The notes under the pieces are model-generated. The model was not told where the DNA came from, ran no database searches, and saw nothing but the letters and a program-made list of their open reading frames with translations. Both the position numbers and the translations under genes were made by a program. Source: an uncultured delta proteobacterium (lineage in GTDB: Bacteria > Myxococcota_A > Polyangia > Polyangiales > Houyiibacteriaceae). Taken from it: 64,000 nt of DNA. Below are positions 56,988-61,817 of the stretch, one piece after another. Each line of letters begins with the position of its first letter. Position 1 is the first letter of the stretch. The DNA lies in assembly GCA_963753395.1 (NCBI GenBank), contig CAVWBW010000004.1, positions 155,062 through 219,061 of the forward strand, given 5' to 3'.

Positions 56988-59210
56988 GTGGGACACGTGC
57001 GCCTTGGACTATTTACGATTCTGGCGTGTGCAGCCTTCTGCGGCTGCGCGCCAAAACAGGATCCTTCTACCGCTCCGGTCGAGGGCGGTGGAAAGAGATC
57101 GAAACGCCTTCCGAACCCGGTGGCAGAGACCGCGCCCGAGGCCATGACGGACCCCGTCGCGTACTGGCGCGAGGGTGAATCGAGCGCACAGGTCGACGCC
57201 GCCAAGGCCGATCAGGAAGGGCACTTGCTCCTCGATTTGGGAGAGGAGTGGACCCCCTACATCCTCAGCGAGGCATCGTCTCTGGACGAGGAGCCGAAGC
57301 CCAACCAGTACCGGGAGACCTACCTCGCGTTGGCACGCGGCGAGTTCCCCGACGACCGGCACGGCTACCGCGCCGAGAAGGATCAGTATCTCGAGCTCTA
57401 CGGCATCCTGCCCACGCTGACGCTCCTCCGCCAACGCTTCGCGGAGGTGGAGGCGCTCGAGTGCGCTGACGCGCTCGACCTAGAGACGCTTCGAAGCTTC
57501 GACGGGTTCCTCGCGTACGAGAAAGGGTACCGTCCCACTCGTCGCGTGAACCGATACAAGCGCTTCAAGCCCCAGATGGCGGCCCTCGTTGCGCGCGCTC
57601 AGGTCGAAAGCCTCGATCAAATCACCCGCGAGCTCGTGGCCGACGACGAAGAGTGGGAGAGGGTCGAGGAGTATCGGAAGATCGCGCCCGAGTACGAGGC
57701 GATCGTGGCGGCACAGGCCCGACTCGAGTGCGAAGGCTTTTTCGAAGGCCGGGGCGCATACACGCCGGGCCTTTTCGATTGGCGCACGCACGAAGCGCTC
57801 GCGGAGTTCGAGCGCCGGCATCGCGTGTACGGCTGGGGCTTCCTCGGCAACGACACTTTGGAGGTGCTTCGGAAGACGCCCGCAGAGACCGAGCAGGAAG
57901 CCGTGATTCGCATGTTGACCGAACGCGCCATGCACGCCGCGGAGGTCATCGAAGACGGAAGCACGTCCACGAAGAACGACGGCGAGCCGCGTACCTACAC
58001 CGATGAGAGCGGGCAGCCGCGACAGATCCCGAACTTCGAGGCCGAGCTCCGCGAGCGGGTCATGGAGGCCTTCGGCTTGCAGACTCCAGAGTCCACCTAC
58101 GCATGGCTGCAGTCGTTGGGCGAGATCCCCGCGCACGAGACGGTCGCGCTCCGCGGCGTCGAGCTGCCACCGTACTACAGCGATTCGATGGATCTCCAGG
58201 TCGAGGTCGACCGGGGCGACGTCTGGTTCGAATTTCCTTATGACGAGGAAGGGCGAAAGCGCTCGCAGCCGGTGGCCCGGCGCCCCCGTCTGACGATCTT
58301 CGTCAACTACAACGATCAGAAGATTCCGCTCGCCCGCTTCGGCACCACGATTGGCGGTTGGCGCGGCGACTACATCGACGGCACCGTCATGCTCAAGTAC
58401 AAGGGCTCGCCGGTCGGAAAGCGCGTCTGGAGCCGCATCTCGGCCGCGCCGATTTGGGTGCCGCCCGAAAGCACGCCGCCTCGCGTGATGCTCTCGAAAC
58501 GCCGGAAGCGCGGCGTAGAGTACTACGAGATCGATTACCACACGACAGGCCCGAGTTACGCGTCGGCCTATGGGTTGGTCGCGGCGTACCACCGGAAGTA
58601 CTACCGAGGCCCTGACGGTGAGCTGCAGCTCGGCGGTGACGAGGGCATCCGAACGCATGGCTCGGTCGACTACATGAGCATCATGCGCCGCCACTCGCAT
58701 GGTTGTCATCGCATGCACAATCACATTGCGGTGCGCCTGATGTCGTTCGTGCTCGAGCACCGTCCGCACACGCGGTACGGCTCGCAACCGATGGAGTACC
58801 GTCGCGAGTTCGAATACGAGGAAGAACTCTACACGATGGAGTTCGAAAAGGGCGGTTACAACTTCGTGCTCGACGAACCGCTCCCGGTCGAAACCCTGGA
58901 AGGACGCGTGCGCGGCAAGGTCAAAGAGCCGATCGAAATCGCGCTTCCGAGGTACGATCGTGAGCTCGAGGCGTATGTCATGCCGACCGGGGAGTGGGTG
59001 ACAGTCGACCGCTACGGGACAATCACGCCGCGCGTGATGCCGTTTGACTTCGACGCGCCGCTCGAGGGGCCGGAGCTCTTGGCGCCCGAAGCGACGACAG
59101 CCGAAGCCACGTCCAGTATCACCGAATCGGGTATGCCGGCGACGGCCCCAGCGTCGATGCCGATGACGACGTCCGTAGTTCCCATGGCACCTGCTCCAAC
59201 CTCTCCCTGA
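56988..59210 (+). CDS. L,D-transpeptidase-like lipoprotein with peptidoglycan-binding-like segment
   Basis: IRTHGS...SHGCHRM YkuD-type catalytic motif; G.FD..T..AL..F.R. Confidence 0.8.
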   Translation: MGHVRLGLFTILACAAFCGCAPKQDPSTAPVEGGGKRSKRLPNPVAETAPEAMTDPVAYWREGESSAQVDAAKADQEGHLLLDLGEEWTPYILSEASSLDEEPKPNQYRETYLALARGEFPDDRHGYRAEKDQYLELYGILPTLTLLRQRFAEVEALECADALDLETLRSFDGFLAYEKGYRPTRRVNRYKRFKPQMAALVARAQVESLDQITRELVADDEEWERVEEYRKIAPEYEAIVAAQARLECEGFFEGRGAYTPGLFDWRTHEALAEFERRHRVYGWGFLGNDTLEVLRKTPAETEQEAVIRMLTERAMHAAEVIEDGSTSTKNDGEPRTYTDESGQPRQIPNFEAELRERVMEAFGLQTPESTYAWLQSLGEIPAHETVALRGVELPPYYSDSMDLQVEVDRGDVWFEFPYDEEGRKRSQPVARRPRLTIFVNYNDQKIPLARFGTTIGGWRGDYIDGTVMLKYKGSPVGKRVWSRISAAPIWVPPESTPPRVMLSKRRKRGVEYYEIDYHTTGPSYASAYGLVAAYHRKYYRGPDGELQLGGDEGIRTHGSVDYMSIMRRHSHGCHRMHNHIAVRLMSFVLEHRPHTRYGSQPMEYRREFEYEEELYTMEFEKGGYNFVLDEPLPVETLEGRVRGKVKEPIEIALPRYDRELEAYVMPTGEWVTVDRYGTITPRVMPFDFDAPLEGPELLAPEATTAEATSSITESGMPATAPASMPMTTSVVPMAPAPTSP

Positions 59211-59261
59211 AGAGCATCAGGAGGGAGCGCCACGCGGTCTCTACGGGGCTTTCTGTATCGC

Positions 59262-59320
59262 TGTGGATAGACCGGGGAAAACGCGCGGGGCTTGTGGAAA
59301 ATTAATCGTATTTCCCACAA
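59262..59320. promoter_or_regulatory. Three DnaA-box-like sites, two forming an 11-bp imperfect inverted repeat
   Basis: TGTGGATAG 59262-59270, TGTGGAAAA 59293-59301 (fits TTWTNCACA on minus), TTTCCCACA 59311-59319. Confidence 0.45.
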
Positions 59321-59392
59321 ACGAATTTCGTTGATCTAGTTTCGTGGATCGGTGACAAAAGGTGTCGGAAGATCGCGACAGCGAGCTCGGAC

Positions 59393-59403
59393 GTTCTTTG
59401 AAT
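59393..59403 (+). promoter_or_regulatory. boxA-like antitermination motif 1
   Basis: GTTCTTTGAAT resembles rrn boxA GYTCTTTRAMA. Confidence 0.55.
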
Positions 59404-60420
59404 CAACCCATTTGACTACGGCAACGAAAGTTGTCGTCTCTCACTCTCACGGGAGTTGGAAGCGGGGCCGCGAGGTCACGCAGTCGGGTTGGCGCGGGAG
59501 CGCGCCGAACGTGTCCGTGGGTCGTGAGGATTGCAAAAGCCGATGTGCTGATGCGTGGGTCCGAGTCGAGCGAAAGCTCCGGCGAGGGCCGTCGACGCGA
59601 GGGGCATCGGTGGAAGGCGCGCTCGAACTGGGACGCCGCTCTGTTTCACCACACGGCGGCCGCGAAGGTTCTCGGCGGAAATCAAAGAGCGACAGGCACT
59701 GGAGCTCTTGGTGCACCGCGACGGCGCGTCACAGGTTCGGTGCTCGGCCGCTTCGGCGGAGCGAGCGCCCGCCTGAGTGAGCGCGGCGCGGTGAAAGCGC
59801 TGGTTCACCGTCAGAAGCCGGTTCGGAGCCGGTGGCGGTAATCCCACGAGGTTCGGGTGCCCATCTTTGAAAACTAAAACTCTGGATTGCACGCGTCGGC
59901 CTGAACGTGCTGCGCGGCTCCATTGCACACGGTATCAATACCGGCAGTGGGGCGCGGGGCGGCATGAGACATCGGATCAACAAGAAGCGCATCCCAACTT
60001 CGCCCACGGCGAGCCGAAAGCCGCGGGTTCAGGTACGGCGAGAGTCGTCGCGGAGTCCAATCACGGCGGTTTGCTAAACCCAAACCGTTGCTGGGACTCT
60101 GTCCGAAGGAGGAGCGTAGGGCGACCTACGCAGCACCCTCGGTATCTCGAGACCTTCAAGTCGAGAGGTACGACGACAGCGCACGGGACGTGTCGGTCAA
60201 AGCTCTTCCAGTGAGTCCAATACCTCACGCGGAGGGTTAGCAGGCTTCCCGACGGGGAATGCATCGCGCCGAAACGTGTCGTGCAAAGCTAGCGTGGCTG
60301 AATAGGCCCGCCATCGAGCCTCGAGCTCGAAATCCAGACAAAGGCGGTCGGGGTGTGCGCACCGTATGTGCGCACACACAACCAAGCGACGAGCAATCGT
60401 CGCGAGGCCAGCGAACTTCC
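59404..60420 (+). ncRNA. Putative large structured non-coding RNA (two domains, about 59410-59860 and 59880-60420); family unrecognised, ends approximate
   Basis: No credible CDS in 1.25 kb; many tetraloop hairpins (GAAA 59426, GCGA 59470, GAAA 59572, cUUCGg 59752, GAGA 60040, GCGA 60121, GCAA 60393); long-range helices 59522-59534/59838-59849, 59881-59888/60331-60338, 59900-59906/60027-60033. Confidence 0.8.
59862..59875 (+). promoter_or_regulatory. boxA-like antitermination motif 2
   Basis: CATCTTTGAAAACT in an A-rich linker between the two structured domains; resembles the 16S-23S spacer boxA TCTTTGAAAAC. Confidence 0.6.
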
Positions 60421-60452
60421 AAAGGGGCGATCCGTGCCGGGTCGCCCCTTTT
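60421..60452 (+). terminator. Intrinsic, possibly bidirectional terminator
   Basis: AAAGGGGCGATCC-gtgcc-GGGTCGCCCCTTTT hairpin with T tail. Confidence 0.85.
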
Positions 60453-60508
60453 CTAATTGGGCGCGGAGATTGGGGTTTGATTTTCGGTACTTGCAGCGTT
60501 TGGGGCTG

Positions 60509-61585
60509 CTACCGGTTCTCGTTCGTTGACCTCACGTTGACATGAGGCGGCGAGGAGGGCTCGAGAGCCTGCACCAAGCGCAGCTGCGCGCGCTGCCCGA
60601 GGTGCGCGTATTGATGCGTGCTCTTGGCCGAAGTGTGCCCGAGCTGCGCTTGAATGGCTTTGATGGAATGCCCGCCCGTGGCGGCCTGGCTGGCCACCGA
60701 ATGGCGGCCGATATGGTGGTGGCCGATCTCCCGGAGCCCAAGAGCTCGTTGGACGAGTTCGGAGGGGCCTCGCGTGGGAGTAGATGCGGTTGGGGAAGGT
60801 ACCCGTCCTTGCTGAACAGGAACTCCGGCCCCGCGTACCCCTGCTGGATGTGCCAGCAAATGGCGTCGACCACGTCTTCGGTGAGAGCAAGGGTCAGCAC
60901 CTTGTTGTTCTTGCGCGGCCCGAGCACGGCGGGCCGGTCCTTGTGGCCCCGCTGCACCGCCCGATCGATGATGAGCTGCGGCGGGATATCCCGGATTCGA
61001 TCTCGCGCGATCGCGTAGACTTCGCCCGTACGAAGGCCGAGCCGGGTCGTGAGGTAGAAGAACGCGTACCATTGGGGGAACATGTCGAACATGCCCCGGA
61101 GCAGCCGGTCGCGCTCCTCTTCCGTGTACCAGTCGATGGCCGGTTCCGGGACGCTCTCCATCGGCACGTAGGGCACCGATTTCAGGTGCCCTCGTCTCCA
61201 CATGAACCGAAGCACCGCCCGCACGATCTTGAGGCGATTGTTGATGGACTCCGGTCCGAGGTGTGTTGGCAAGCCTGCCTTGAGCTCGTCGATCACCGAG
61301 GTGTCGACTTGCTCGATGTACAGATGCCCGATGTGCGACTCGAGGTCGCGCCAGAAGCGCGTGCAGTTGTCTCGGCTGCCCGGCTTCATCGTGGTGGCGG
61401 ACAGGTACATCCTGTACGCATTCGCCATGAGAAAGCGCTTTTGCCCGGAGATGAGCTCCTCCCGCTTTCGTCGTTCGGCTTCGCGCGCCTCGGCCATCGT
61501 TCGGAAGCCAGCTTTGCGCTGGCGCCCGTAGCCCTTCGAGCGTGAAGTCGTACTGCCATGATTTGCTTAGTCTTCTAATGGCCAT
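60509..61585 (-). pseudogene. Tyrosine recombinase/integrase with apparent frameshifts (about 61530 and about 60790)
   Basis: MAIRRLSKSWQYDFT arm-binding-like start, LGLRTGE, K (PRKNNK), HIGRHS, QLGH, HQY distributed over two frames. Confidence 0.85.
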
Positions 61586-61817
61586 GCGGCTCGTTTCCTT
61601 TCTGCGTGGAACTTCCGCATCGCCATGTCCGGATTCGTCAGGAAGAGGTCTAACATACCCCGACGGAATCGGCGCACGCGCGGCCGCCCGTACGACCGGA
61701 ATTCGCCTCCCGGAGACGAGGTTTTCGTAGACGTCGGTTGGACCAGCCGGCGTACGCCGCCGCATGGGCGTAGGTCTGCCAGGCGGCGACATGCGTGCTG
61801 TGAGTCGCATCGGTCAT
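61567..61817 (-). pseudogene. Excisionase-like HTH protein with two apparent +1 frameshifts
   Basis: Reconstructs to MTDATHSTHVAAWQTYAHAAAYAGWSNRRLRNLVSGRRIPVYGRPRVRRFRRGMLDLFLTNPD; overlaps integrase start. Confidence 0.65.

Follow-up and report, generated by a model that had tools for sequence, protein, structure and literature searches.

The window analyzed here is a stretch of 64,000 nucleotides (nt) from the genome of an uncultured delta proteobacterium of the Polyangiales (assembly GCA_963753395.1; contig CAVWBW010000004.1, here C4, positions 155,062 to 219,061). The genome comprises 4.9 Mb with 64% G+C at a completeness of 99.4%. A gene-free gap of 1.3 kb (59211-60508) holds two motifs resembling boxA, the element of ribosomal RNA (rRNA) operons that is bound by NusB and NusE. 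This gap encodes one stable, highly structured non-coding RNA composed of two domains of ~450 nt each and a 3' tail. An initial annotation had pointed out the two motifs and had described the region as a long untranslated structured transcript; both motifs are present at the positions given, on the + strand, and the transcript is borne out by a covarying fold, by strand asymmetry and by RNA contigs. The features of the RNA are as follows.

~59370 to ~60430, + strand: whole RNA, ~1,050 nt, ends approximate; covered by contigs over ~59377-60427 in four runs, strand assigned from the fold
59393 to 59403, + strand: boxA-like motif 1, GTTCTTTGAAT; TCTTTG core invariant in 31 of 31 homologs
59406 to 59858, + strand: domain 1, ~450 nt, predicted in both folds, internal helices covarying
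59406 to 59409 with 59855 to 59858, + strand: closing helix of domain 1, ACCC with GGGT; four pairs, weak, paired differently in the second fold
59862 to 59880, + strand: A-rich linker between domain 1 and domain 2, with boxA-like motif 2, CATCTTTGAAAACTAAAAC; TCTTTGA core invariant in 31 of 31 homologs
59881 to 60338, + strand: domain 2, ~460 nt, closed in both folds by TCTGGATT (59881-59888) with AATCCAGA (60331-60338)
60339 to 60343, + strand: CAAAG, predicted in both folds to pair with CTTTG (59865-59869), the core of motif 2
60353 to 60408, + strand: two 3' hairpins (helices 48 and 49), with seven and six pairs changed on both sides
60409 to 60420, + strand: CAGCGAACTTCC, predicted to form, as the 3' strand, a terminal helix together with motif 1 (helix 1 of the second fold, weak)
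60421 to 60455, + strand: terminator hairpin (helix 50) followed by a T run, conserved in the genus; an analogous terminator is found in a second family

Expression of the RNA was analyzed in metatranscriptomes. Ten runs from at least four sediment studies each contained 25-44% of the sampled words of 59200-60520, and four runs from four studies were mapped as contigs onto 58900-60800. The numbers of matching contigs per run were 1,101, 614, 22, and 369, all located within ~59377-60427. Summed word depth amounted to 10^4 to 5x10^5 in three runs and to at most ~31 in run X19. Depth over the flanks, namely the upstream gene and the downstream island, was zero except for 1.5 in one bin and 14.9 in another in run X12; these silent flanks argue against carry-over of DNA. 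Such a swarm of short, deep, variant contigs would be expected if many strains shared an RNA of very high abundance. Assembled contigs carry no information on strand, exact ends or true levels, and the best-conserved parts of the sequence show inflated depth. Processing of the transcript into RNAs of ~450 and ~540 nt, as suggested by the initial annotation, is not supported, since contigs from two studies run across the linker and extend past it by more than 31 nt in either direction (X19, 59697-59905; X7, 59752-59910). The bin containing the linker (59860-59923) was not depleted either, showing the highest depth in X7 and the second highest in X12 and X20. Apparently, the locus gives rise to one RNA of ~1,050 nt and not to two processed products.

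The fold was derived from an alignment of 31 non-identical homologs, 22 from genomes of the genus and nine from named records of metagenome-assembled genomes labeled as Myxococcales, Polyangiales, Deltaproteobacteria or uncultured bacterium. RNAalifold predicted 282 pairs, of which 126 showed at least one compensatory double change. In a second fold with 367 pairs, 160 were changed on both sides as compared to a mean of 68.2 after shuffling (none of 500 shuffles reached 160) and to 47-71 in slid controls; furthermore, 93.9% of the cells were paired as compared to 36-40% in slid controls. The slid control is somewhat flattering because the structure was derived from the same sequences, but the margin is still large. 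The folding energy was -321.7 kcal/mol for the + strand and -169.9 kcal/mol for the - strand, and the alignment contained 1,045 G-U cells versus 111 A-C cells. Hence, the fold and the G-U pairs identify the + strand as the RNA strand. The RNAalifold structure also places motif 2 as the initial annotation had described it, in an A-rich linker between the helix closing domain 1 and the helix opening domain 2. Domain 1 contains an invariant helix formed by CTCACTCTCACGGG and GTGTCCGTGGGTCGTGAG. In four relatives from the genus (L020-L023), domain 1 carries an extra insertion of ~90 nt between the equivalents of window positions 59489 and 59490, which opens with GTTTCAC, as does the conserved loop GTTTCACCAC later in the same domain.

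Both motifs face possible pairing partners further downstream. The CTTTG core of motif 2 may pair with CAAAG; the partner varies to CAGAG or CGAAG, giving U-G pairs, with CTTTG fixed, and none of the five core pairs shows a double-sided change. For motif 1, a terminal helix of nine pairs is predicted, a single one of which has changed on both sides (in three sequences); in this helix, part of the motif lies opposite CAGCGAAC at 60409-60420; this pairing, too, is possible.

The distribution of the RNA was examined by sequence and structure searches. According to BLAST, 23 of the 24 further genus genomes contain homologs with 67-93% identity, spanning ~59258 to ~60460; in 16 genomes from other families of the order, only one chance-level match of 31 nt was obtained. 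A scan of contigs with a 17-base motif returned 118 loci, mostly by chance; nhmmer classified 25 as homologs, many of them duplicates of known loci. A covariance model of domain 2 (R1, built on 60172-60351) matched 17 of 17 sampled genomes of the genus, none of six genomes from other genera of the same family, and two of 23 genomes of a second family, f17 (37 and 33 bits). With a model of the 5' part of domain 1 (R2), the only match outside the genus was a weak one in genome G119 (15.8 bits, E = 0.0056). A strict linker pattern was found in 22 of 401 genomes of the phylum, with one match each: the host, 16 of 17 genomes of the genus, and five of 29 f17 genomes. The pattern did not occur in the others of these 401 genomes, and a control with the reversed pattern gave no match in them.

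In f17, the RNA has a length of ~1,300 nt and its own terminator, and it can no longer be aligned to the genus RNA by BLAST. Its linker reads GGGTGC-N3-T(C/T)TTTGA(A/C)ATG-TGG(G/A)TTGCA. The closing helix of domain 2, read by eye, is GUGG(G)/(CU)CAC in f17 and CUGGA/UCCAG in the genus, a change that looks compensatory.

Searches of databases and literature returned no counterpart. Rfam gave no match anywhere in the window at gathering thresholds, and at E values up to 10 over 59100-60600 only chance-level scores were obtained, the best sub-threshold ones being 16.9-19 bits as compared to thresholds of 37.6-61. Twister-P5 (19 bits) and group II D1D4-6 (16.9 bits), which are among these chance-level scores, were rejected as identities of the RNA. 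The thresholds of Rfam 15 families (OLE, GOLLD, ROOL, HEARO, group II intron, RNase P, transfer-messenger RNA (tmRNA), 6S, signal recognition particle (SRP) RNA, and others) were not reached in the window. Neither a transfer RNA (tRNA) nor a tmRNA was detected in the gap; the housekeeping RNAs, i.e. RNase P RNA, tmRNA, SRP RNA and a 6S candidate, are located elsewhere in the genome. No account of this RNA was found in the literature searched, which mostly excluded subscription journals. The RNA family is uncatalogued and looks new. It is known from a single genus and, in strongly diverged form, from a further family of the same order of myxobacteria.

Both motifs are located on the RNA-library contigs, with the + strand assigned as above; contig 59377-59535, for instance, contains motif 1. 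In the 31-sequence alignment, mean column identity is 73% and the cores of both motifs are invariant. The 8-base core TCTTTGAA occurs 84 times in the genome on both strands; on one strand of 1.1 kb, ~0.009 occurrences would be expected, and two are present here. Motif 2 is also kept in the second family as T(C/T)TTTGA, namely in the five of 29 sampled f17 genomes which match the linker pattern. Conservation among homologous loci, which a boxA reading calls for, is thus seen for both cores in the 31 sequences and for motif 2 also in f17; a search for motif 1 in the homologs of the second family did not find it.

We then compared the motifs with the stable-RNA genes of the same genome. The rRNA genes are unlinked: 16S (C12:168246-169791) and 23S (C12:249-3256) are 165 kb apart, and the RNA described here is encoded on C4. 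The 16S gene stands alone. Its leader reads CGGTCTTTGAAAACTGAATC; downstream of the gene come a trailer with the complementary sequence and then a cold-shock-like gene, and the leader boxA overlaps the 5' strand of the leader-trailer pairing. The 23S-5S unit is arranged in the order leader site GACGCTCTTTGACAATTTGCG, tRNA-Ile, tRNA-Ala, spacer site CGCATCTTTGACAACTGAATAAG, and 23S. In agreement with the initial annotation, the core of the motifs corresponds to the boxA of the 16S leader, the 23S-operon leader, and the tRNA-23S spacer. The genome contains the 12-mer TCTTTGAAAACT exactly twice, once in the 16S leader and once in motif 2 (12 of 12 bases identical), and motif 2 and the tRNA-23S spacer site have CATCTTTGA.AACT.AA in common. 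Motif 1 shares only the 8-base core TCTTTGAA with the rrn boxAs.

A comparable site precedes tmRNA. The tmRNA gene (C7:6070-6446) carries a boxA-like leader, GGGTCTTTGAAAATCT, immediately 5' of the mature end and behind a pair resembling TTGCGC-N17-CATAGT; this copy is conserved as GTCTTTGAAA(A/T)T in 16 of 16 genus genomes read. No such motif was found in the 300 nt upstream of RNase P RNA, except for one in a coding-looking stretch. TCTTTGA alone occurs 471 times in the genome. The extended form TCTTTGA[AC]AA has eight sites where ~3.2 are expected, and five of these belong to stable-RNA transcripts: the 16S leader, the 23S-operon leader, the tRNA-23S spacer, the tmRNA leader, and the linker with motif 2. 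With such sites at rrn genes, at the tmRNA leader and in this RNA, the motif marks stable untranslated RNAs in the lineage. Two of the other sites look coding. The remaining one, TTCTTTGAAAAAA at C13:156189, was taken as a chance occurrence; it is situated in an AT-rich operator region which contains a long palindrome and controls divergent genes, one regulator-like and one transporter-like. In f17, the 16S leaders carry GGTCCTTGAAAACTGAG (TCCTTGA) and one rrn spacer reads TCTTTGA. Judged by these variants, boxA-type sites tolerate T(C/T)(C/T)TTGA.

Furthermore, the genome was searched for the proteins concerned. NusB is encoded (PF01029 with 125.6 bits in a frame of 213 amino acids (aa)), and a second match lies in a frame of 444 aa. 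The RNA-binding domain of Rho (PF07497) was not detected in any of 31 genomes of the order, including the host, and full-length Rho (TIGR00767) reached only 28.7 bits in the host as compared to a cut-off of 509; the Rho controls were positive in nine and 12 of 14 reference genomes. Rho is thus not found in the genomes searched, which is less than being absent. Because no Rho was found, protection from Rho is an unlikely purpose of the motifs. The boxA/Nus reading of the initial annotation is supported as regards the presence of rrn-like motifs on an expressed RNA; a role in protection from Rho has become doubtful.

Additional features are located on both sides of the RNA gene.

ending at 59210: gene 5' of the gap, 740 aa, with a weak YkuD match
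59293 to 59319: inverted repeat TGTGGAAAA-N9-TTTCCCACA, 5' of the RNA gene, conserved among the genus homologs in the alignment
59331 to 59359, + strand: putative promoter with TTGATC and GACAAA 17 nt apart, the latter replaced by TAGAAC in some relatives; proposed from conserved blocks
60430 to 60462: 33-nt att-like direct repeat at the 3' end of the RNA, with an exact copy at C4:219556-219588, ~500 nt past the end of the window
60509 to 61810, - strand: tyrosine-integrase-like ORF (open reading frame), PF00589, E = 7.1e-6, 26.3 bits, just below the cut-off of 27.1 bits

The YkuD-like gene was present upstream of the RNA at 10 of 10 genus loci with enough flanking sequence and at none of eight loci of the second family; it is linked to the RNA within the genus only and gives no clue to function. 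The inverted repeat may be the binding site of a regulator. A further TGTGGAT, likewise conserved across the genus, is located near the repeat at 59261. The putative promoter would place the transcription start near 59366, and the earliest RNA contig begins at 59377. A scan for consensus promoters and terminators found no promoter and did not list the 3' terminator hairpin either. Promoter and start, as well as the exact ends of the RNA, are therefore given as what we infer from conserved blocks and contig cover.

At the 3' end of the RNA, the two 33-nt repeats bracket an island of ~4 kb with the integrase-like ORF. The PF00589 match is confined to the 47 C-terminal residues, and two overlapping frames are open on the - strand, 60509-61810 and 60532-61497. 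The integrase-like gene may be decayed. Extra copies of the RNA 3' end exist in many genomes of the genus, and contig breaks are common just after the RNA gene. Genes for tRNA and tmRNA serve as attachment sites of integrases, and the arrangement observed here is similar in that a direct repeat of the 3' end of an RNA gene flanks an insert with an integrase-like gene; it differs in its putative target, which belongs to neither of these two kinds of RNA. The 3' end of the RNA thus seems to be a hotspot of island integration, which bears on the genome assembly and the evolution of these uncultured bacteria.

Taken together, we lean, if only mildly, towards the reading that the two motifs are genuine NusB/NusE boxA sites which provide for transcription and folding in the manner of rRNA, each being located in front of a long-range helix that closes a domain. 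The motifs in the nascent RNA would bind NusB-NusE (S10) and thereby turn RNA polymerase into an elongation complex of the rRNA type; this modification would take place at motif 1 and for a second time at motif 2. A likely benefit that does not depend on Rho would be fast, pause-resistant transcription of a long, GC-rich, untranslated RNA. Chaperoning would be a second likely benefit: the boxA-held 5' strand would stay close to the RNA exit until its 3' strand emerges ~450-1,000 nt later. In line with this, each motif is directly followed by the 5' strand of a long-range helix, and the boxA of the 16S leader is placed likewise. Such tethering by boxA was proposed to help form the 16S leader-trailer helix (PMC10250234). 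Unlike rRNA spacers, both motifs remain part of the mature RNA, and their cores may end up paired. Nus binding and the chaperone role are, at this stage, proposals.

Several observations weigh against this reading. The first 500-600 nt of the second-family RNA would be made without a boxA, since motif 1 was not found there; two f17 genomes have TTTTTGA in the linker, and no co-variation of the linker with the rrn sites was observed. Since the motif cores are able to pair with the downstream CAAAG and CAGCGAAC, a structural constraint could account for their conservation. Both motifs persist in an abundant RNA, whereas rrn leaders and spacers are removed. Finally, the classical purpose of boxA, to counteract Rho, is unlikely to apply.

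Some of these observations give weight to the idea that the motifs are structural, motif 1 pairing with CAGCGAAC and thereby closing the molecule, motif 2 pairing with CAAAG, or both making tertiary contacts or contacts to proteins other than Nus, with a convergent likeness to boxA. Retention in the abundant RNA, the failure to find motif 1 in the second family and the lack of a detectable Rho for boxA to counteract would all be accounted for; besides, CTTTG (59865-59869) is paired to CAAAG (60339-60343) in either fold, as is part of motif 1 to 60409-60420, and a UUUG/CAAG pairing, read by eye, would also be possible in the second family. A plain helix, however, would change on both strands, and here it is the partner that drifts, to U-G pairs, with the motif strand unchanged in 31 of 31 sequences. 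The identity with the 16S-leader boxA covers 12 bases and thus exceeds the five that are paired, the extended motif is also found at four other stable-RNA leaders or spacers of the genome, and the terminal helix has just one covarying pair. On balance we regard a purely structural role as unlikely, though by no means far-fetched. Less probable still is a maturation signal common to stable RNAs, i.e. an entry or cleavage site of an RNase E/G-like enzyme, with a cut in the linker yielding two products. The motif does sit in segments removed upon maturation of the 16S, 23S and tmRNA precursors, and the A-rich linker is largely single-stranded by prediction; yet contigs bridge the linker in X19 and X7, its bin is deep, and motif 1 is included in an RNA contig. 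Partial cleavage would still be compatible with the contigs, but altogether we consider such a signal improbable.

That the motifs are chance occurrences or drifting leftovers without function in a real RNA would fit the agreement of motif 1 with the rrn boxAs in its 8-base core only and the 471 copies of TCTTTGA in the genome. It is very improbable, given invariance in 31 of 31 sequences at 73% mean column identity, the persistence of motif 2 across two families whose RNAs fail to align by BLAST, and the restriction of the 12-mer TCTTTGAAAACT to the 16S leader and motif 2. Hardly credible at all is that the region codes for a protein or is an rrn leader or spacer placed there by mis-assembly. 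Stretches without a stop reach 152 codons, as a G+C content of 64% leads one to expect, but covarying helices extend throughout and the indels are not multiples of three. Mis-assembly, which the initial annotation had named as a possible refutation, is contradicted by the data: the locus is present once per genome and in conserved synteny, its upstream gene being shared by 10 of 10 genus loci including assemblies of 4-6 contigs, and 16S and 23S are located on another contig with leaders of their own.

If the motifs are genuine boxA sites, the nearest known system is the rrn boxA with its complex of NusB-NusE (S10), NusA, NusG, SuhB, and S4. The core equals the three rrn boxAs of the genome; the carrier is an untranslated, highly structured and abundant RNA; the first copy is located close to the 5' end and the second separates two large domains; and each precedes the 5' strand of a long-range helix, comparable to the 16S leader-trailer pairing. 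The RNA differs from that system in that it contains no rRNA, the motifs are retained and not trimmed, no boxB or boxC is defined, and Rho was not found. Outside rRNA operons, boxA is also present on clustered regularly interspaced short palindromic repeat (CRISPR) arrays. It was further described in the 5' untranslated region of suhB and in other genes, in a survey which left out non-coding RNAs (Baniulyte et al. 2017, PMC5725501). The suhB and CRISPR cases resemble the present one in having an rrn-like boxA on a non-ribosomal transcript, judged by similarity to rrn and by conservation; they concern messenger RNAs or CRISPR arrays of Rho-containing Gammaproteobacteria, whereas the RNA described here is a structured RNA of 1 kb with two sites. 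An rRNA-type boxA on this RNA would thus be a known device in a new setting.

OLE is a highly expressed RNA. OLE (~600 nt), GOLLD and ROOL resemble the RNA presented here in their large size, dense conserved structure, unknown biochemical function and narrow taxonomic range. The RNA presented here differs in that it does not match any of them in Rfam by sequence or structure and is longer (~1,050 nt, and ~1,300 nt in the second family). It also differs in its myxobacterial host and in the boxA motifs, and it shows no link to phages: a loose linker pattern hit at least 108 loci on viral contigs, none of them homologous among the matches listed.

A wider proposal, which we put forward tentatively as possible, is that this RNA represents a new class of very large (1.05-1.3 kb), ornate RNAs, ranking among the most abundant non-ribosomal transcripts of sediment myxobacteria and made by a boxA/Nus polymerase that chaperones long-range helices without Rho. 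It would then be a further rRNA-like stable RNA beside 16S, 23S, 5S, and tmRNA, and the core of a ribonucleoprotein or an RNA-only assembly; that it acts as a scaffold for such an assembly is a guess. To our knowledge, there are very few bacterial non-coding RNAs longer than 500 nt, and those discovered, namely OLE, GOLLD and ROOL, have all led to new biochemistry. The RNA is plentiful in the libraries of several sediment studies, and material as well as sequence diversity for structural work is at hand. Furthermore, the boxA motifs make it testable whether the Nus complex is a general folding and processivity device for large RNAs and not only a safeguard of rRNA against Rho, a question that is sharpened in these bacteria, where Rho was not detected and the same motif precedes tmRNA.

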